Shown here: positions 27,087-37,712 of the stretch, piece after piece | Layout of the letters: every line of letters starts with the position of its first letter | Numbering within the stretch: position 1 is the first letter of the stretch | Assembly: GCA_963835115.1 (NCBI GenBank) | Contig: CAWIEP010000046.1 | Span: forward strand, 487 to 64,486 | Direction: 5' to 3' | Source of the DNA: an uncultured Pseudomonadota bacterium | GTDB lineage: Bacteria > Pseudomonadota > Alphaproteobacteria > Rhizobiales > Beijerinckiaceae | DNA: 64,000 nucleotides | Position numbers and translations under genes: made by a program | Notes under the pieces: generated by a model | Told to the model about the DNA's origin: nothing | Databases searched by the model: none | What the model saw: the letters and a program-made list of their open reading frames with translations, nothing else

Positions 27087-29954
27087 TCAGAGATTTTCAA
27101 GTCTCGCGCGCGCGCTCTGCAATCTTTCGATACGCGCGACGGCGGCCTCGCGTCGTTCCCGATTCTCCTCGACGATTTCTTCCGGGGCGCGGGCCACGAA
27201 ATCCGGGTTCCCTAGTTTGGCGTCGACCTTGGCGACCTCGCCCTGTTCTTTGGCGATCTCGCGGTCGAGGCGGGCGCGCTCGGCGCCGAAATCGACGAGG
27301 CCGGCGAGCGGCAACGCCGCCTGCGCATCACGCACGAGCAGCGCCACGGCGCCGTGCGGCGGCTCGGCCACGACATCGACGCCTTCGATTCGCGCCAGCC
27401 GCTCCAAGGTCGGCCGCCAGCGGTGGAGATAGCCCTCGACGTCGGCGCTCGGCGTAACCAGCACCAGCCGCAGCGGCGCGCCGGGCGCGATCGCCATTTC
27501 CGAGCGCACCGACCGAATCGCCTCGATGAGTTCGATCACCCAGCCGATCTCGGCCTCGGCCGCCTGCGTCCCGGCCGGCGCGGCGACGTCGGGCCAAGCG
27601 CCAAGCGCCAGCGGGCCGGCGCGGGCGGGACCTTGGGCGCCCTTGATTGCCCACAGCTCCTCGGTAAGGAAGGGCATGAACGGATGCAGCATGGCGTAGG
27701 AGAGATCGAGCACATGCGCGATTGTCGCGCGCGTTTCGGCCTTGGCCGCCTCGCTCGCCTCGCCCTGCAATACGGGCTTTGCGAGCTCAAGGCACCAGTC
27801 GCACAGCACGCTCCAGACGAAACGATAGGCGGAGTTGGCGGCGTCGTTGAAGCGGTATTCCTCGATTCCCGCGGCGACCTCAGCCAGCGTCGCCGCGGCC
27901 TCAGCCAAAATCCAGCGGTTGAGCGGGTCCGCGGCCGTCTTCGGGTCGAAATTCTCAACCCGCGCGCAGCCGTTCATTTCGGCGAAGCGCGACGCGTTCC
28001 AGAGTTTGGTTGCAAAATTGCGGTAGCCTTCGACGCGCGGGATCGACAGTTTGATGTCGCGCCCCTGCGCCGCCATCGCCGCCAAAGTGAAGCGCAAGGC
28101 GTCGGCGCCGCACTGCTCGATGAGGGTCAGGGGATCGATGACGTTGCCCTTCGACTTCGACATTTTCGCGCCGCGCTCATCGCGGACGAGCGCGTGGATG
28201 TAGACGTCGCGAAACGGAATCTCTTTCTGGAAATGCAGACCCATCATCATCATGCGAGCGACCCAGAAGAAGATGATGTCGAAGCCGGTGACGAGGACGC
28301 TGGTCGGATAGAACCGTTCAAGCTCGGGCGTCTCCTGCGGCCAGCCGAGCGTCGAGAACGGCCACAAAGCCGAGGAGAACCAGGTGTCGAGCACGTCCTC
28401 GTCACGTGGAAACATTTCAGACAGTTTCTCAGGCTTGCTCGCGAGGGCTTCGGCCTCAGCGCCCGTCAGCGCGCCACGCTCGACACCGTCGGCGAGCGCC
28501 ACGGCAAAGGCGGTCTCCTCGTCTTCTTCGACATAGGTTCCGCCCCACGGCGAACTCCACGCCGGGATCTGATGGCCCCACCAGAGTTGGCGCGACACGC
28601 ACCAGGGCTGGATGTTTTCGAGCCAATCGAAGTAGGTCTTCTCCCAAGTCTTCGGCGTGAAGACGGTCTTGCCGTCGCGCACGGCGGCGAGCGCCGGCTG
28701 CGCCAAGGTTTTAGCGTCGACGTACCATTGATCCGTGAGCCAGGGCTCGATGACGGCGCCCGAACGGTCGCCGTGCGGAACCATGTGCGCGTGCGGCTCG
28801 ATCCGCGCGAGCCGCCCCTCGCGCGCCATCATGCCCACGACCTTCACGCGGGCTTCGAAACGGTCGAGGCCGTCGAGCGTGGCGACGAGCTGCGTCAGCT
28901 CATGATCGCCCGCCTCGACGCCTTCGAAGAAGGCGACGTTGTTCCTCAGCGCGACGCGCCCCTCGGCGTCGAGGACATTGATTGGCCGCACCCCTTCGGC
29001 CTCGTGGCGCCTGCCGACCTCGAAATCGTTGAAATCGTGGGCCGGCGTGATTTTGACCGCGCCCGTCCCCTTCTCGGGGTCCGAATAGTCGTCGGCGATT
29101 AGCGGGATGAGCCGGCCGACCAGCGGCAGCCGCAATTTCGAGCCGACCCAGCCGCGGTAACGCTCGTCTTCCGGATGAACAGCGACGGCGGTGTCGCCGA
29201 GCATCGTTTCGGGCCGCGTGGTGGCGACAGTGACGATCTGGGTCTCGTCGTCGAACGGGTAGTCGAAATGGTAGAGATGGCCGCCAGGATTCTTGGCCAA
29301 CGCTTTTGCCAGCGCGGCCTCATCGAACGCCTCGCCCGACTCACGCGACCACTTGAACGATCCCTTGCCTTCGATCTGCTGCACTTCGAGGTCGGAGATC
29401 GCGGTCTGGAATTTCGGATCCCAGTTGACGAGCCGCTTGTCGCGATAGATCAGCCCCTCGCGATGCAGTTGAACGAAAACTTTGGCCACCGCCCTGGACA
29501 GGCCCTCGTCCAAGGTGAACCGCTCTCGGCTCCAGTCGCACGAGGCGCCGAGGCGTTTGAGTTGGCCGACGATGGCCCCGCCGGACTCCGCCTTCCACGC
29601 CCACACCCGCTCCAAAAACTTTTCGCGGCCCATGGCTCGCCGGTCCGGCTCCTTACGCTCCATCAGCTGCCGCTCGACCACCATCTGCGTGGCGATGCCC
29701 GCGTGATCCGTGCCAGGCTGCCACAGCACGTCGCGGCCCTTCATGCGCCAGTAGCGACAGAGAATGTCCTGCAGCGTGTTGTTGAGCGCGTGGCCCATGT
29801 GCAGATTGCCGGTAACGTTTGGCGGCGGGATGACGATGCAAAACGGCTCGGCGGCGGCGCGTTCCGGCCGGCCGGCGCGGAAAGCGCCCGTCCGCTCCCA
29901 CATCTCGGCCGTCCGGCGCTCCACGGAAGCAAAGTCGAAGTTCTTGTCCATCAT
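27087..29954 (-). CDS. valS: Valine--tRNA ligase
   Basis: PPPNVTGNLHMGH, KMSKS, WCVSRQLWWGH, DVLDTWFSS, C-terminal coiled coil; intact 955 aa. Confidence 0.98.
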   Translation of the reverse strand: MMDKNFDFASVERRTAEMWERTGAFRAGRPERAAAEPFCIVIPPPNVTGNLHMGHALNNTLQDILCRYWRMKGRDVLWQPGTDHAGIATQMVVERQLMERKEPDRRAMGREKFLERVWAWKAESGGAIVGQLKRLGASCDWSRERFTLDEGLSRAVAKVFVQLHREGLIYRDKRLVNWDPKFQTAISDLEVQQIEGKGSFKWSRESGEAFDEAALAKALAKNPGGHLYHFDYPFDDETQIVTVATTRPETMLGDTAVAVHPEDERYRGWVGSKLRLPLVGRLIPLIADDYSDPEKGTGAVKITPAHDFNDFEVGRRHEAEGVRPINVLDAEGRVALRNNVAFFEGVEAGDHELTQLVATLDGLDRFEARVKVVGMMAREGRLARIEPHAHMVPHGDRSGAVIEPWLTDQWYVDAKTLAQPALAAVRDGKTVFTPKTWEKTYFDWLENIQPWCVSRQLWWGHQIPAWSSPWGGTYVEEDEETAFAVALADGVERGALTGAEAEALASKPEKLSEMFPRDEDVLDTWFSSALWPFSTLGWPQETPELERFYPTSVLVTGFDIIFFWVARMMMMGLHFQKEIPFRDVYIHALVRDERGAKMSKSKGNVIDPLTLIEQCGADALRFTLAAMAAQGRDIKLSIPRVEGYRNFATKLWNASRFAEMNGCARVENFDPKTAADPLNRWILAEAAATLAEVAAGIEEYRFNDAANSAYRFVWSVLCDWCLELAKPVLQGEASEAAKAETRATIAHVLDLSYAMLHPFMPFLTEELWAIKGAQGPARAGPLALGAWPDVAAPAGTQAAEAEIGWVIELIEAIRSVRSEMAIAPGAPLRLVLVTPSADVEGYLHRWRPTLERLARIEGVDVVAEPPHGAVALLVRDAQAALPLAGLVDFGAERARLDREIAKEQGEVAKVDAKLGNPDFVARAPEEIVEENRERREAAVARIERLQSARARLENL

Positions 29955-30286: not shown

Positions 30287-32192
30287 ATGAGCCGCTACGC
30301 TTCCGTCTACGCGCAATGGCGCGAGAACCCGGAAGCCTTTTGGGCCGAGGCCGCCAAAGCCGTCGATTGGATCAAGCCGCCCCGGCGCATTTTCGACGCT
30401 GAAGCCGGCGTCTACGGCCGCTGGTTTCCCGACGCCACTTGCAACGCCTGCGCCAACGCGCTCGACCGCCATGTCGCGGCGGGGCGTGGCGATCAGGCCG
30501 CCCTTTACTACGACAGCCCCGTCACCGGCGCGAAGCGCCGGATTACCTACGGTGAGCTCCTAGGCGAGGTGGAGACGCTCGCCGCCGTCATCGCCGATTT
30601 CGGCGTCGCCTCCGGCGACCGCGTCGTCATCTACATGCCGATGATTCCCGAAGCGATCGCCGGTATGCTGGCCTGCGCGCGCATCGGCGCCGTGCATTCG
30701 GTAGTGTTCGGCGGCTTCGCCGCCAAGGAACTCGCCACCCGCATCGAGGACGCCGAGCCAAAACTGATCCTGACAGCCTCTTGCGGCGTCGAGCCCGGCC
30801 GGGTCGTGGCTTATAAGCCGCTGCTCGACACCGCGATGGACCTGTCGCGCCACAAGCCCCCCGCGGTGTTGCTGCTCCAGCGGCCGCAGGCCGCAGCGAC
30901 GATGATCGCCGGGCGCGACCGCGATTGGGCGCAGACAATGGCGAAGGCCAAGGCCGAAGGCAAAAGGGCGGCCCCCGCCGAAATGAAGGCGACCGATCCG
31001 CTCTATATCCTCTACACTTCCGGCACGACCGGCATCCCGAAAGGCGTGGTGCGCGACACCGGCGGTTATCTCGTCGCGCTCGCGTGGTCGATGGCGAACA
31101 TCTACGACGTCAAGCCCGGCGAGACATTCTGGACTGCGTCCGACATCGGCTGGGTCGTCGGCCATTCCTACATCGTCTATGCGCCGCTGATGCATGGCTG
31201 CGCCTCCGTGCTTTACGAGGGCAAACCGGTCGGGACCCCGGACGCCGGCGCGTTTTGGCGGGTAATCTCCGAATACGGGGTCTCCGCCTTCTTCACCGCC
31301 CCCACCGCGCTGCGCGCCGTACGCAAAGAAGACCCAGTGGCCAAGCTGCTGCCGCGCTACGACATTTCCAGCCTTCGCACCTTGTTTTTGGCTGGCGAGC
31401 GGGCCGATCCCGACACGGTGGCCTGGGCCGAGACAGGTCGTTGGCCGTCCGATCGTCGACCACTGGTGGCAGACGGAGACCGGCTGGGCGATCGCCGCCA
31501 ATCCCGTGGGGCTTGGGCTGATGCCGATCAAGCGCGGCTCGCCGACGGTCGCCATGCCCGGCTATCAAGTCGACATTGTCGACGAGGCCTGCCGCCCCGT
31601 CGCCGACGGCGTGATGGGGTCCATCGTCATTAAACTGCCGCTGCCTCCCGGCTGCCTGCCGACCCTCTACGGCAATGACCAGCGGATGCGCGAGAGCTAC
31701 CTCTCGGAATTCCCCGGCTATTACAAAACCTCCGACGCAGGCGTGAAGGATTCCGACGGCTATCTGACAATTCTCGGCCGCACTGACGACATCATCAATG
31801 TCGCGGGGCATCGTCTGTCGACCGGCGGCATGGAGGAGGTGGTGGCGAGCCACCCCGACGTCGCGGAATGCGCCGTGCTCGGGATCAAGGACGCCATCAA
31901 GGGCGAGCAGCCATGCGGGTTCCTGGTTTTGAAGGCGGGCGTCAACCGGCCACACGCAGAGATCGAAAGGGAGGTTGTCGCGCTGGTGCGCGATAGAATC
32001 GGCCCGGTGGCGGCTTTCAAGCTGGCCATCGTGGTCGCGCGCCTGCCGAAAACGCGCTCGGGCAAGATCTTGCGCGGCACCATAAAGAAGATCGCCGATC
32101 AGGAACCGTGGTCGACGCCGGCCACCATCGAGGACCCGGCGACGCTGGAGGAGGTGTCGGCGGCGATCCGAACTCGGGGCATAGGGGCGTAA
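30287..32192 (+). CDS. prpE: Propionyl-CoA synthetase (acetate-CoA ligase family), one frameshift at about 31440
   Basis: YILYTSGTTGIPKG, SDIGWVVGHSYIVY, DHWWQTETGW, GRTDDIINVAGHRLSTG, LPKTRSGKILR. Confidence 0.88.
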
Positions 32193-32259
32193 GGCAAAGC
32201 GCGCGGGGCGTTGACCGGTCAATATCGACTGTCAGTCTTCCTTTGCGGTTGCAGATATC

Positions 32260-32277
32260 TGTCAGCCACGATTGACA
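32260..32277. promoter_or_regulatory. PpsR/CrtJ-type operator TGT-N12-ACA overlapping a TTGACA -35 box
   Basis: TGTCAGCCACGATTGACA = TGTCA-N8-TGACA; second degenerate site TGTCAGTCTTCCTTTGCG at 32230-32247; lies upstream of the hydrolase-bchG pair. Confidence 0.8.
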
Positions 32278-32425
32278 CTTTTCGCGACAGACGCCAATCT
32301 ATCCGATGGCGCCGGCGTATGTCCGTTCGGCGCGGCCAGACCGGGCTTTTGATGTGTTCTTCGGCTCGCCGTCCCTTAGCCGACAGCGGCGGGCTGTTCG
32401 GCTTTGAACGCCAAGGCGCGGCGCT

Positions 32426-34080
32426 ATGAGCTCCAGGGAAGTTGACGGTGCGCAGTGGATCGAGCCGACGGTTGCTCGCACCACATTGACAAGCGCTCCG
32501 CGGCGCGGGCCGCAATCCTCGCGCGCGCGGCGCGCCATCTTCCATCTCACGCCGCTCAACGCCGTGATCGCTATCTTCGCGGCGCTTGCGATCCTGACGG
32601 CGCTGCTTGAATTGCACGGCCAATATCGCGGCGTGCGAATTGTTCAGACGGACGTCGATGGCGCGCCGGCGACGATCTATCGTCCCAGAGTCCGGGGCCG
32701 CCGCGCCGGTCGTCGTGATCGCGCACGGCTTCGCGGGATTCCGGGCGGCTCATGCAGTCCTATCGCCCTTACTCTGGCGCGCAACGGCTATATCGCCGAC
32801 GACCTTCGATTTTCCCGGCCACGGCCGCAACGTCCGGCCGCTGACCGGCGACCTTGCAAATGTCGAAGGCGCGACGCGCGTTCTCGTCAACAGCCTCGCC
32901 GCCGTCGTCGCCGCCGTTCGCGGCCTCGGCGACGGGCGGATCGCGGTGCTCGGCCATTCCATGGCGTCCGACATCGTCGTGCGCTTCGCCGAGGAGCATC
33001 CCGAAGTCGCCGCGACCATCGCCGTCTCGATGTTCTCGCCCGCGGTCACCCGAACGGCGCCGCGCAATCTGCTGGTGATCGACGGCGAGTGGGAAGGGTT
33101 TTTGAAGGCCGAGGGCTTGCGCGCGGTCGGCCTCGCGACCGCTCCCGGCGCGGCGGCGCCCGGCGTCACTTATGGCGATCCCGCCGCGGGACCGGCCGGC
33201 GCGTCGCGTTCAGCCGTCACGTCGAACATGCGAGCGTGCTGTTCAGTCAGGACAGCGAGCGCGAGACGGTCGAATGGCTGGACGCCGTTTTCGGCGTCAA
33301 GCGATCCGCGCCGCATCCAGCTCGATGCGCGCGGTCCCTGGATCCTCCTCCTGCTGGCCGGAGCGGTCGCGCTTGCGCGCCCGCTGGCGCAAGCCCTGCC
33401 GGCGGTCGCGCGCCGAGCCGCTCGGCGCGGGGCTTTCGTTGGCGGCGGCTTTGGGCGCCCGCTGCTCATCCCGATGATCGCGACGCCGGCCCTTGTCCTG
33501 CGCTTCGTTCCCACGCATTTCCTGCCGGTGCTGGTCGGCGACTATCTCTCCGTCCATTTCGCCGTCTATGGGCTTGATCACCGCGGCGACGCTATGGCTC
33601 GCGATGAGCGGCAGAACGCGTTCGCCGCGGGCTGAGCGCCCGGCGCGGCTGGCTGCTCGCGGCGTTCGCGGTCACCGCCTTCGGCTTCGTCGCGCTCGTC
33701 GCGCCGATCAACGCCTACGTGACTTCGTTCATGCCGGGTCCGGAGCGGTTGTCGATCCTGGCGGCGCTGCTCGTCGGCGCGTTGCCGTATTTTCTCGCCG
33801 ACGAATGGTTGACGCGCGGGCCGGGCGCGGCGCGCTTCGCTTATCCCGCGACCAAACTGGCGTTTCTGGTCTCGCTCGGCGTCGCCGTCGCGCTCGATTT
33901 CTATCGCCTGTTCTTCCTGATCCTGATCGTGCCGATCGTCGGCGCTGTTCTTCGTCATCCACGGCCTGTTCAGCGGCTGGACCTACTGCCAAGGTCCGCC
34001 ACCCGTTCGCCGCGGCGGTCGCGAACGCGATCGCCTTCGCCTGGGCGATCGCCGTCACCTTTCCACTCGTGGCGGGATAG
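32426..34080 (+). CDS. Alpha/beta-fold hydrolase with N-terminal anchor and multi-TM C-terminal domain, frameshifted; start uncertain
   Basis: VVVIAHGFAG, FDFPGHGRN, nucleophile elbow VLGHSMAS, VEHASVLFS, then hydrophobic helices ending AWAIAVTFPLVAG*. Confidence 0.8.
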
Positions 34081-34091
34081 GAAGCGCCGAC

Positions 34092-35025
34092 ATGACCAGC
34101 ACGAGCGATCTCCGATCTTCGCCGCCGACCGGCGCGGCCGCACGCCTATCCCGAGCCTTCCGCGGTGCTGGAGCTGTTGAAGCCGATCACCTGGTTTCCG
34201 CCGATGTGGGCGTTCGCCTGCGGCGTCGTTTCCTCCGGCCAGCCGATCCTGGCCAACGGGCGCATCGCGCTGACCGGCATCGTGCTGGCGGGGCCGCTGG
34301 TTTGCGCGATGAGCCAGGCGATCAACGATTGGTGCGACCGCGAGGTCGACGCCATCAACGAGCCGAACCGGCCGATACCGTCGGGGCGCATCCCTGGCCG
34401 TTGGGGGCTCTATATCGCCATCGGTCTGGACCGCTGCTTTCGCTGCTCGTGGCGGCGACGCTCGGGCTCTGGGTGTTCATTTCCGCCGTGGTCGGTCTGG
34501 CCTTCGCCTGGGCCTACAGCGCCGAGCCGTTCCGGCTCAAGCGCAACGGCTGGCTCGGCAACGCCGCTTGCGGCTTCTCCTATGAGGGTCTGGCATGGGT
34601 GACGGGCGCCGCGGCGATGCTCGGCGGCGCCTTGCCCTCCGCGTCGATCCTGTGGCTGGCGTTTCTTTACAGCCTCGGCGCCCACGGCATCATGACTTTG
34701 AACGATTTCAAATCGATCAAAGGGCGATGCGCAGATGGGGATCGACTCTGTCCCCGTCCTGATGGGCCCCAAGGGCGCGGCTTGGGCGGCCAGCTTCATC
34801 ATGGCCGCGCCGCAGGTCGCCGTCATCGGCCTGCTGGTGGCGTGGGGACATCCCTATTTTGCGGCGTTCGTCGGCGCCCTTTGGCTCGGGCAACTCGCGA
34901 TGATGGCGAAATTCATCGCCGAGCCGGTCAAACGCGCCGTTTGGTACAGCGGCTTCGGCGTCCCCCTTTATGTCCTGGGGATGATGGCGAGCGCGTTCGC
35001 GGTGCGGGCCGCGGCCGGCGGATAG
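34092..35025 (+). CDS. bchG: Bacteriochlorophyll synthase (UbiA family), frameshifted
   Basis: LELLKPITWFPPMWAFACGVVSSG, LAGPLVC..SQAINDWCDREVDAINEPNRPIPSGRIPGRWG, KRNGWLGNAACG.SYEGLAW, GAHGIMTLNDFKS, GVPLYVLGMM. Confidence 0.93.
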
Positions 35026-35163: not shown

Positions 35164-36819
35164 ATGGCCGCGCGCCAGTTCATCTACCACATGCGGGGTC
35201 TGACCAAGACCTATCCCAGCGGCAAGAAGGTGTTGGAAAACGTTAATCTCTCCTTCTATCCCGACGCCAAGATCGGCGTGCTCGGCGTCAACGGCTCCGG
35301 CAAATCGACGCTGATGCGCATCATGGCCGGCATCGACACCGAATTCGTTGGCGAGGGATTTGTCGCCGAGGGCGCCCGCGTCGGCTATCTGCCGCAGGAA
35401 CCGCCGCTCGATCCGGAACTGGATGTCCGCGGCAACGTGACGCTCGGCGTCAAGGCCAAGCAGGACATCCTCGACCGCTACAACGAACTCGCGATGAACT
35501 ATTCCGACGAGACCGCCGACGAAATGACGCGACTGCAGGATGAGATCGAGGCCAAGGGGCTGTGGGATCTCGACTCCCAGGTCGAGCAGGCGATGGACGC
35601 GCTCGGTTGCCCGCCCGACGACGCCGACGTCACAAAGCTCTCGGGCGGCGAGCGCCGCCGCGTTGCGCTGTGCCGGCTGCTGCTCGAACAGCCGGAGCTG
35701 CTGTTGCTCGACGAGCCCACCAACCATCTCGACGCGGAGACGGTCAACTGGCTCGAAGGCCACTTGCGCAACTATCCCGGCGCGATCCTCATCGTCACCC
35801 ACGACCGCTACTTCCTCGACAACGTGACGGGTTGGATCCTCGAACTCGACCGCGGTCGCGGCATTCCCTACGAGGGCAATTACACGGCGTGGCTGAAGGC
35901 CAAGCAAAAGCGCATCGAGCAGGAGAAGAGCGAGGACGCCTCCCGCGCGCGCGCCATCGCGGAGGAAGCCGAATGGATCTCCGCCTCGCCGAAGGCGCGA
36001 CAGGCCAAGAACAAGGCGCGCATCACGCGCTATGAGGACCTCGTCAACAAGCAGAACGACAGGGCGCCGAGCACCACTCAGATCGTCATCCCCGTCGCCG
36101 AGCGGCTGGGCGCGAACGTCATCGACTTCGACCGTCTGTCGAAGGGCTTTGCCGAGCGACTGTTGATCGACGACCTCTCGTTCAAGCTGCCGCCCGGCGG
36201 CATCGTCGGCGTCATCGGCCCCAACGGCGCGGGCAAGACGACCCTTTTTCGCATGATCACCGGCCAGGAGAAGCCGGACTCCGGCGCGATCAAAATCGGC
36301 GAATTCGTGCAGCTCGGCTATGTCGACCAGTCGCGCGACGCGCTGAACCCCAAGAAAACCGTGTGGGAGGAAATCTCGGGCGGGCAGGACATCATCTATT
36401 TCGGCAAACGCGAGATCAACAGCCGCGCCTATTGCGGCGCGTTCAACTTCAAGGGCTCCGACCAGCAGAAGAAGGTCGGCATGCTTTCGGGCGGCGAGCG
36501 CAACCGCGTGCATCTCGCCCAGATGCTGAAGGGCGGCGCGAACTTGCTACTGCTCGACGAGCCGACCAACGACCTCGACGTCGACACTTTGCGCGCGCTC
36601 GAGGAGGCGTTGCTGGATTTCGCCGGCTGCGCGGTGGTGATCAGCCACGACCGTTTCTTCCTCGACCGCATCGCCACTCACATGCTGGCTTTCGAGGGCG
36701 ACAGCCATGTCGAATGGTTCGAGGGCAATTTCGCGGACTACGAAGAGGACAAGAAGCGCCGGCTCGGGATTGACAGCGTCATCCCACACCGGCTCAAGTA
36801 CAAGAAATTTTCGCGGTAG
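35164..36819 (+). CDS. ettA: ABC-F translational throttle EttA/ChvD
   Basis: [76 protein letters not shown]; intact. Confidence 0.96.
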
Positions 36820-36935
36820 GGCGAGAGCTCGGCCTCGTCGAGGTTGCGACCGGCCGCGCGAGGGGCGCCGCCCCTTGCCCGCCTGCGAAAAACAGGTCAC
36901 AGAAGCTGCAATTTCCTGACCGCGAACCGCCATCG

Positions 36936-37712
36936 ATGCTGATACTCCACTACCATCTTTTCAAGAACGCCGGCACCTCGGTCGACGCGATGTTGAAAGC
37001 CAATTTCGGCGATCGCTGGGAGGAGGCCGAGTTCAGCGGATCGGGCGGCGCGCGCACGAACGCCGATCAGGTCACGGCGTATCTCAAGGCGCGGCCTCAC
37101 CTTCGCGCGTTCTCTTCGCACACCGCGCTGTTGCCGCTGCCGAGGCTCGACCAGCCGATCTTTCCGATCTTGTTCGTGCGGCATCCGATAGATCGGATCA
37201 AATCCGCCTATTCTTTCGAACGTAAGCAGGTGGCGGAGACGCACGGCGCCCTTCTCGCCAAGGAGCACGACTTCGCCGGCTACGTGCGTGAGCTCCTGGA
37301 CACGCCCGGCAATCGGCAGGCGCGCAATTTCCATACGCATCGTCTGGCCCACAACGAGCCGAAGGAGAAGGGCGCGGAGCGCGAGCGGGCGTTGCGGACG
37401 CTCAACGCATTGCCGTTCGTGGGCCTGGTGGAGGAATACGAGACGTCGATGCTGCGTCTTCGGCAAAGTTTGGCGGACGCCTTGCCGGATTTGAAGATAG
37501 TGATCGTGCACGCCAACAAGACACAGGAGTTGAAGGAACCGCTGGAAAGCAAGCTGAATTCGATTGAGCGGGCGCTCGGCGAGAAGCTGTATACGGAATT
37601 GACAGCCGCCAATGTGGACGACCTCGCGATTTTTGAGCGCGTTCAGGCGTTGTACGCCGAAGTGAAGCCCGCGAGCGCAAGCGCGCCTTGGGAGGCGCAC
37701 GGGGGGCTGTGA
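36936..37712 (+). CDS. Sulfotransferase family 2-like protein
   Basis: HLFKNAGTS (5'-PAPS loop-like) and FVRHPIDRIKSAYSF (3'-phosphate motif-like), FVGLVEEY, ANVDDLAIF. Confidence 0.75.
   Translation: MLILHYHLFKNAGTSVDAMLKANFGDRWEEAEFSGSGGARTNADQVTAYLKARPHLRAFSSHTALLPLPRLDQPIFPILFVRHPIDRIKSAYSFERKQVAETHGALLAKEHDFAGYVRELLDTPGNRQARNFHTHRLAHNEPKEKGAERERALRTLNALPFVGLVEEYETSMLRLRQSLADALPDLKIVIVHANKTQELKEPLESKLNSIERALGEKLYTELTAANVDDLAIFERVQALYAEVKPASASAPWEAHGGL

Follow-up and report, generated by a model that had tools for sequence, protein, structure and literature searches.

A membrane alpha/beta-hydrolase gene paired with the sole bacteriochlorophyll synthase gene of a Beijerinckiaceae genome, a candidate for pigment-tail turnover

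Why should the gene of bacteriochlorophyll a synthase, bchG, stand among housekeeping genes with a membrane hydrolase gene as its partner? The question is raised by a stretch of 64,000 nucleotides (nt), here called the window, from an uncultured bacterium of the family Beijerinckiaceae (GenBank assembly GCA_963835115.1, contig CAWIEP010000046.1, positions 487 to 64,486 of the forward strand), in which bchG directly follows a gene encoding a membrane-anchored alpha/beta-hydrolase. An initial annotation, made from the sequence alone, had proposed that the two genes form a module for the de- and re-esterification of pigment. Comparison with the rest of the genome, with related genomes and with predicted structures indicates a genuine two-gene unit, and a role of the hydrolase in pigment metabolism is well supported. 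The removal of the bacteriochlorophyll tail by this enzyme is a more tentative proposal, which is weighed below against several alternatives.

A two-gene unit behind a PpsR-type operator

The unit consists of the following elements.

~32426..34080, plus strand: membrane alpha/beta-hydrolase gene; product of ~510 amino acids (aa), in which a serine esterase domain lies between an N-terminal transmembrane (TM) helix and a C-terminal domain of 8 TM helices
34092..35025, plus strand: bchG, bacteriochlorophyll a synthase of the UbiA family, with matches to NCBIfam PRK07566 and TIGR01476
32260..32277, no strand: PpsR/CrtJ-type operator TGTCAGCCACGATTGACA, a perfect TGTCA-N8-TGACA palindrome (TGT-N12-ACA site) found by motif scan

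The hydrolase gene ends with a TAG codon at 34078-34080 and bchG begins with the ATG at 34092, leaving a gap of 11 nt that holds an AGGA-like ribosome-binding site. The start of the hydrolase is ambiguous, being either the ATG at 32426 or a later in-frame start, and homology extends from 32540. The motifs HGFAG, FDFPGHGRN, GHSMA, and VEH are all present in the window copy, in agreement with the initial description of a multi-TM serine hydrolase lying 11 bp ahead of bchG. The palindrome that had been noted upstream is likewise there, in the intergenic region 32193-32425 ahead of the hydrolase. It has the TGT-N12-ACA form of PpsR/CrtJ promoter palindromes, is perfect over 5 + 5 bases, and includes a -35-like hexamer, TTGACA, as its right half. 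It is the one match to TGTCA-N8-TGACA in the window, against 0.01 expected, and the sole match in the whole 3.4-Mb, 70-contig assembly. The same genome encodes PpsR, with two TIGR02040 matches (27680-28998 and 36041-37335) on another contig, C9. In a sigma-70 consensus scan the TTGACA-17 nt-CAATCT promoter was missed, and after bchG the scan showed no site resembling a terminator. A 12-nt palindrome, TTGACCGGTCAA, lies at 32211-32222, 38 nt upstream of the PpsR-type box.

Boxes of this type recur elsewhere. TGTCA/C-N8-TTGACA boxes stand upstream of linked bchG genes of the same clade in the congeners G014, G046, G022, and G099, and TGT-N12-ACA boxes, mostly of the form TGTCA/C-N8-TTGACA, are found at the 5' end of hydrolase operons at ~23 of 66 loci, compared with ~3 expected. 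No PpsR box was found upstream of the operons of G135, G044, and G080 or of the stand-alone hydrolases of G019 and G022, several of these assemblies being error-prone.

The possibility that the adjacency is a misassembly had been raised with the initial annotation. Genome G135 is collinear with the window over 32660-35007, with 76% DNA identity and different flanks, and a short-read contig from a related strain spans the hydrolase-bchG joint (34063-34302). The join is upheld by both, and the presence of the pair in G135 without the same flanks indicates that it moves as a unit. The hydrolase followed by bchG, with 11-nt spacing and an upstream PpsR-type operator, is a real two-gene unit, a conclusion that we hold with high confidence, jointly with the other genomic conclusions given below.

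Distribution and gene neighborhood of the hydrolase

The hydrolase is nearly confined to genomes that encode bacteriochlorophyll synthase. Among 120 species genomes of the genus, it occurs in 16, all with bchG (16/16), and in 0 of the 88 genomes that lack bchG; in a set of 300 genomes of the order, the carriers number 27, again all with bchG (27/27), and include 0 of 228 bchG-less genomes, counts in which related genomes are not independent. At the level of the class (400 genomes), 7 carriers were found, 3 with bchG, 1 with pufLM, and 3 with neither. The initial annotation would have been undermined by homologues that are equally common in nonphototrophs and show no linkage to bch genes, and it survives this comparison.

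The linkage of the gene was surveyed at 80 loci from many taxa. At 17 of them bchG directly adjoins the hydrolase on the same strand, 10 times downstream and 7 times upstream, and it lies within 4 kb at two further loci. Within the genus, the hydrolase is located at most 6 kb from bchG in 11 of 17 carriers, in three arrangements. A gene of the FrhB/FdhB family is placed directly upstream of the hydrolase at ~21 of the 80 loci (including L033, L038, L040, L042, L051, L056, L060, L061, L074, and L078), often behind a TGTCC/A-N8-TTGACA box, and three loci have the order FrhB-like gene, hydrolase, bchG. In the genus of the window the FrhB-like gene was seen only in G083 and G085. The 8-vinyl reductase BciB and HCAR belong to this family, which makes the neighbor gene a candidate bciB; a look-up in the Atlas returned generic names only. 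Other recurrent neighbors of the hydrolase are bchH, ppsR, pucC, a bchP-like reductase gene, hemC, and a B12-binding, AerR-like gene, and loci of Bosea show the order bchH-bchG-hydrolase-hemC. In Methylobacterium (L052:2056-3687 and L053:8609-11467), a gene with a B12-binding domain (AerR/PpaA-like) is divergent from the hydrolase, and at L058 and L071 the same B12-binding gene family is divergent from bchH.

Near-confinement to bchG genomes, repeated adjacency to bchG, and recurring PpsR-type boxes together support a functional link between the hydrolase and bacteriochlorophyll metabolism, and this part of the earlier module proposal stands, while its suggestion of a second BchG does not. Several observations count against a general or exclusive link. 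The hydrolase occurs in 27 of the 72 bchG genomes of the order and is missing from the other 45, and is therefore accessory. Three nearly complete genomes (G446, G451, and G481; loci L113, L114, and L111) encode a full-length hydrolase without bchG or pufLM, as a stand-alone gene with no bch neighbors and no box, and in Rhodoplanes the hydrolase is found among nif-like genes. Bacteriochlorophyll producers are, with few exceptions, the only hosts of the hydrolase, and among them it is an accessory gene.

The breadth of this linkage bears on which ester is cleaved. The hydrolase may act on another ester of the pigment pathway than the C17(3) tail, such as the C13(2) methoxycarbonyl group, Mg-protoporphyrin monomethyl ester, or a carotenoid, quinone, or prenyl-lipid ester. 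Linkage to bchH, hemC, and the BciB/HCAR-family gene as well as to bchG would fit this explanation, and ring-E ester hydrolases (BciC) are known in other phototrophs (PMC9066304). However, bchG is the commonest single pigment-gene partner when the FrhB-family gene is set aside, the CAAX-protease-like domain described below suggests the handling of a prenyl tail, and the early steps of the pathway are cytoplasmic whereas the prediction places the esterase domain in the periplasm. We consider this explanation quite unlikely.

Copy number, position and phylogeny of bchG

The bchG reading frame is broken into pieces, which match PRK07566 with 144, 130, and 94 bits and TIGR01476 with 122, 108, and 73 bits. 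Three pieces cover positions 2-283 of TIGR01476, and their rough bit sum, set against the cut-off of 212, places the product in the BchG family; intact BchG orthologues of the same clade reach 336-351 bits. The corrected translation has no stops and contains NDWCDREVD, which is the Asp-rich motif of UbiA-type enzymes (NDxxDxxxD).

Family-model searches found one bchG in the 3.4-Mb assembly and one in each of five relatives. In the relatives G011 and G019, bchG directly follows ppsR, ~20 kb from pufLM. On C9 of the window's own genome, a pucC-like gene follows ppsR after 223 nt, and the same place in G011 comprises 949 nt and holds bchG. The gene in the window is the sole bacteriochlorophyll synthase gene of the assembly, and it is gone from the usual ppsR-bchG-pucC slot on C9. 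A second copy was rejected as an explanation, with one bchG per genome checked and the C9 slot empty. The initial annotation had offered a second BchG with different specificity as an alternative and had suggested a genome search and a BchG tree; the search gave a single family match, which does not bear out that alternative, and the tree shows two clades.

When the assembly was searched with all open reading frames (ORFs) of the 60-kb photosynthesis cluster of G011, bchG alone was located on the window contig (C46) and the rest on C9. No photosynthesis gene besides bchG was found in the 64-kb window by this search, as had been claimed for bch, crt, puf, and puh genes. Contig C9 carries the photosynthesis gene cluster at 284-37400, with two ppsR paralogues and the empty bchG slot. 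The assembly contains no equivalent of the G011 segment crtD-crtE-crtF-bchCXYZ-pufBALM. The start of C9 coincides exactly with the break of the crtD-to-pufM segment of G011, and the missing puf and bchCXYZ genes are therefore probably off the contig rather than lost. The locus thus has the same enzyme, BchG, and the same PpsR-type control as the canonical ppsR-bchG-pucC-bchP order, which G011 and G019 keep, but here bchG is located on another contig, between housekeeping genes and paired with the hydrolase. Its neighbors outside the unit are as follows.

30290..32192, plus strand: prpE (propionate-CoA ligase), upstream; NCBIfam PRK10524 match in two frames
35164..36819, plus strand: ettA (ABC-F translational throttle), downstream; NCBIfam PRK11819, 927 bits, intact frame

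These matches agree with the initial placing of bchG between prpE and ettA. In the small shares of public soil and moss metagenome contigs that were covered, no read contig spans 32169-32335 or the bchG-ettA joint.

When 45 BchG sequences were placed in a maximum-likelihood tree, the ppsR-slot genes of this genus separated, with 100/99 support, from all hydrolase-adjacent bchG genes. The hydrolase-linked clade contains the window, G135, the G014 group of the same genus, Methylobacterium, Bosea, Phreatobacter, Hyphomicrobium, and metagenome-assembled genomes of Lysobacterales, with G135 BchG (86% identity) as the sister of the window sequence. The tree indicates that the window bchG very probably falls in a clade of BchG sequences that accompanies the hydrolase across Proteobacteria, although sequences from outside the genus were gathered through hydrolase similarity, a bias that weakens the pattern there and leaves the contrast within the genus unbiased. 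Two deep BchG clades are thus present within one genus, with a single copy per genome, which indicates that bchG or whole clusters were replaced by transfer.

Such replacement bears on the possibility that the adjacency is hitch-hiking without shared function, or that the linked BchG clade differs in its specificity for substrate or tail and the hydrolase has no bearing on it. Photosynthesis clusters are frequently transferred and have a mosaic makeup, the two deep BchG clades occur within one genus, and the hydrolase lies apart from bchG in 10 of 17 members of the genus and at most loci, all of which would be expected under this explanation. Nevertheless, the two genes have come to adjoin each other repeatedly, in either order and in several lineages, they share PpsR boxes and co-occur strictly, and we judge hitch-hiking to be very unlikely.

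Origin of the frame breaks

Both genes of the unit are interrupted by frame breaks, which were located by frameshift-aware protein-to-DNA alignment with the intact G019 hydrolase orthologue and G014 BchG as references. With 13 frame corrections (at 32684, 32739, 32764, 32798, 33186, 33317, 33411, 33439, 33458, 33570, 33658, 33941, and 33987), the hydrolase has no stops and shows 71% identity to the G019 orthologue. bchG requires 3-4 corrections (34143, 34420, 34433, and 34719), after which it has no stops and shows 68% identity to G014 BchG. A single extra base accounts for 16 of the 17 corrections, and the catalytic motifs are all kept in the corrected frames. In near-identical short-read contigs from soil metagenomes, one base is absent at 32687, 32796, 33313, 33412, and 33438, matching predicted sites. 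prpE has one insertion near 31432, and the base is absent at 31432/31433 in three short-read runs. The density of insertions is uneven, with 13 in the hydrolase, 3-4 in bchG, 1 in prpE, and 0 in ettA and in two 2.9-kb ORFs; GC content was compared with this unevenness and gave no explanation. The photosynthesis genes on C9 are also fragmented, with bchH in 8 pieces.

These patterns can be read in two ways. Both genes could be pseudogenes in decay, left over in a lineage on its way out of phototrophy, as the concentration of breaks in the hydrolase, bchG, and C9 cluster genes, with none in ettA or the 2.9-kb ORFs, and the failure to find pufLM in the assembly might suggest. However, all breaks but one are +1 insertions, no stop codons or deletions are left after correction, the catalytic motifs are intact, and the puf-bearing segment would fall just past the end of C9. 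Moreover, 5 of the 13 hydrolase breaks, as well as the break in the housekeeping gene prpE, are extra bases according to the short-read contigs. Decay is therefore largely rejected and appears extremely improbable. We read the frame breaks as insertion-type consensus errors, since nearly all are +1, no stops remain once they are corrected, and five sites and the prpE site are contradicted by short-read contigs.

Architecture of the hydrolase family

Intact orthologues of the hydrolase are 497-509 aa long, and >2,700 homologues of comparable length are on record, annotated as no more than "alpha/beta hydrolase" or with generic guesses. Among the hosts that bear a name are Methylobacterium, Bosea, Rhodoplanes, Rhodopila, Rhodomicrobium, Salinarimonas, Aurantimonas, Lichenihabitans, and Lichenifustis. 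Literature searches yielded no paper on this family and only mentions of BchO. In 32 diverse members, HGFAGS, GHSMA, G-x-W-E, and E-H are invariant. The proteins have the nucleophile elbow, HG oxyanion motif, late His, and fold of serine alpha/beta-hydrolases, and Pfam Abhydrolase_1 and Hydrolase_4 match above their cut-offs. In the full-length AlphaFold2 model (pLDDT 91, pTM 0.90), a single N-terminal helix precedes an alpha/beta-hydrolase domain, after which come eight more helices, and the catalytic domain resembles PETase, cutinase, monoacylglycerol lipase, dienelactone hydrolase, and PlaF, with esterases matching at an E value of 3e-8 in Foldseek. On sequence and predicted fold, the hydrolase is a member of the alpha/beta-hydrolase superfamily outside any named family. 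BchO, which is encoded in bchI-bchD-bchO, shares the alpha/beta-hydrolase fold, the company of photosynthesis genes, and the lack of an assigned function, but it is soluble, has ~300 aa, and adjoins bchID, whereas the present hydrolase has ~500 aa and 9 TM helices and adjoins bchG, bchH, or a BciB-like gene. Identity with BchO was rejected, with no BchO model among the NCBIfam matches of two intact members at E <= 0.01.

Positively charged residues in the loops are strongly biased, with a K+R count of 10.2 on the side of the N terminus and the even loops compared with 2.1 on the opposite side (32 members), which by the positive-inside rule predicts a periplasmic esterase domain. One N-terminal anchor helix followed by a periplasmic alpha/beta-hydrolase domain is also the layout of PlaF (Foldseek match 6i8w, E 4e-7), which, unlike the hydrolase, lacks a polytopic domain at its C terminus and is not linked to photosynthesis genes. 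The hydrolase could accordingly be a membrane-lipid esterase (a phospholipase A, a lysophospholipase, or a PlaF-like acyl-remodeling enzyme) that restructures the photosynthetic membrane and shares its regulation with pigment genes only because both are needed while the apparatus is being built. The monoacylglycerol lipases and PlaF among its fold and profile matches, the predicted periplasmic location of the catalytic domain, and the occurrence of the family in three nonphototrophs are consistent with such an activity. However, a wider distribution would be expected of a lipid enzyme, and neither the direct adjacency to bchG in both gene orders nor the near-absence of the family from the 316 genomes in genus and order that lack bchG is explained by it, making it an unlikely alternative to an action on pigment.

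The C-terminal membrane domain, when modeled alone, has a pLDDT of 91. It contains the invariant residues D-Y-x-x-x-H and A-W...T-F-P and the nearly invariant D-E-W-L-T-R. Foldseek returned no match at E <= 0.001 for this domain alone, and Pfam assigned it to no significant family, the Rce1-like model appearing at an E value of 1.6 in 2 of 32 members. With an exhaustive structure aligner, the eight helices align best to proteins of the CPBP/CAAX fold, SpdC (Z 9.9, 192 residues) and Rce1 (Z 8.1, 169 residues; next match 6.6), although for helical bundles Z values of 8-10 are in the range where likeness may reflect a common arrangement, which tells against resting a tail-binding function on this match. 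DEWLTR and DYxxxH may be counterparts of the CPBP catalytic motifs EExxxR, FxxxH, and HxxxN. Unlike CPBP/CAAX proteins, the domain forms one protein with an esterase and has no significant Pfam match and no catalytic motifs that could be aligned. Rce1 can house an isoprenoid chain, and an Rce1-like domain would suit the handling of a prenyl tail.

A large conserved membrane domain with invariant residues of its own also raises the possibility that the hydrolase is mainly a scaffold, or an assembly or quality-control factor for BchG or the light-harvesting complexes, with catalysis secondary or absent. Plant CAAX-protease-like BCM proteins are regulators of chlorophyll metabolism and offer a parallel. 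However, the Ser, His, HG, and acid residues are conserved without exception across the 32 diverse members, which points to retained catalysis and makes a mainly scaffolding function highly improbable. In the ESM Atlas, full-length structural look-alikes form a cluster (483 aa, TM 0.86), mostly from Cyanobacteriota, and the architecture may therefore also occur in oxygenic phototrophs.

A candidate role in pigment-tail turnover

The removal of the tail and its subsequent re-esterification form an accepted route of chlorophyll repair in plants and cyanobacteria. To our knowledge, essentially nothing is known of the turnover, recycling, or proofreading of bacteriochlorophyll in purple and aerobic anoxygenic phototrophs. 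The hydrolase may cleave bacteriochlorophyll or bacteriopheophytin at the C17(3) tail ester, with BchG re-esterifying the product, a reading that is the most economical one and that we regard as a serious possibility, held with rather less than even confidence. The enzyme would be an integral-membrane serine carboxylesterase with its catalytic domain at the periplasmic surface of the membrane, and its CAAX-protease-like helical domain would hold the isoprenoid tail. It would remove the tail ester from free, damaged, or wrongly esterified pigment, and BchG would re-esterify the released bacteriochlorophyllide, resulting in salvage, proofreading, or tail exchange, while PpsR would repress the hydrolase and bchG together under high oxygen or light. 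More doubtful is the fuller picture, in which the family would be the missing dephytylase of anoxygenic phototrophs, a periplasm-facing esterase with a tail-gripping, Rce1-like domain that operates a PpsR-controlled cycle of de- and re-esterification with BchG.

Chlorophyll recycling by tail removal and ChlG-dependent re-esterification is known in oxygenic phototrophs, and the dephytylases CLH, PPH, and CLD1 are, like the hydrolase, serine alpha/beta-hydrolases, so that the proposed chemistry of tail-ester hydrolysis and re-esterification would be the same (PMC9066304). In its architecture the hydrolase is unlike these enzymes, having an N-terminal anchor helix and a fused 8-TM domain and a predicted periplasmic location, and it shares an operon with the synthase under a PpsR-type box, its own activity being a proposal.

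The tail-ester mechanism is a plausible candidate from sequence and fold, and several points weigh against it. The hydrolase shows no significant membership in the chlorophyllase families, to which its resemblance consists of weak, subthreshold Pfam matches: Chlorophyllase (PF07224) is matched by 5 of 32 members, with a best E value of 7e-4, and the PETase-like family PF12740 by 25 of 32, both below the cut-off. UbiA-type prenyltransferases such as BchG act at the cytoplasmic face of the membrane, and the predicted periplasmic esterase domain would face away from the BchG site; with the two on opposite faces, a tight couple of hydrolase and BchG is not obvious. In addition, no second, cooperating palindrome was found at <=1 mismatch in 32190-32430, a region in which assembly indels could hide one.

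If the dephytylase reading is true, the hydrolase has an architecture unlike that of any known chlorophyll tail hydrolase. The locus also reveals that a departure of bchG from the photosynthesis cluster, in the company of a hydrolase partner, is possible, which matters for calling phototrophy from incomplete genomes. The hydrolase provides a concrete gene for the study of bacteriochlorophyll turnover, and culturable carriers are available in Methylobacterium, Bosea, Rhodoplanes, and Salinarimonas. Conserved, unnamed, and encoded almost exclusively by bacteriochlorophyll producers, this membrane esterase is a good candidate for a step that is missing from the turnover of pigment tails.

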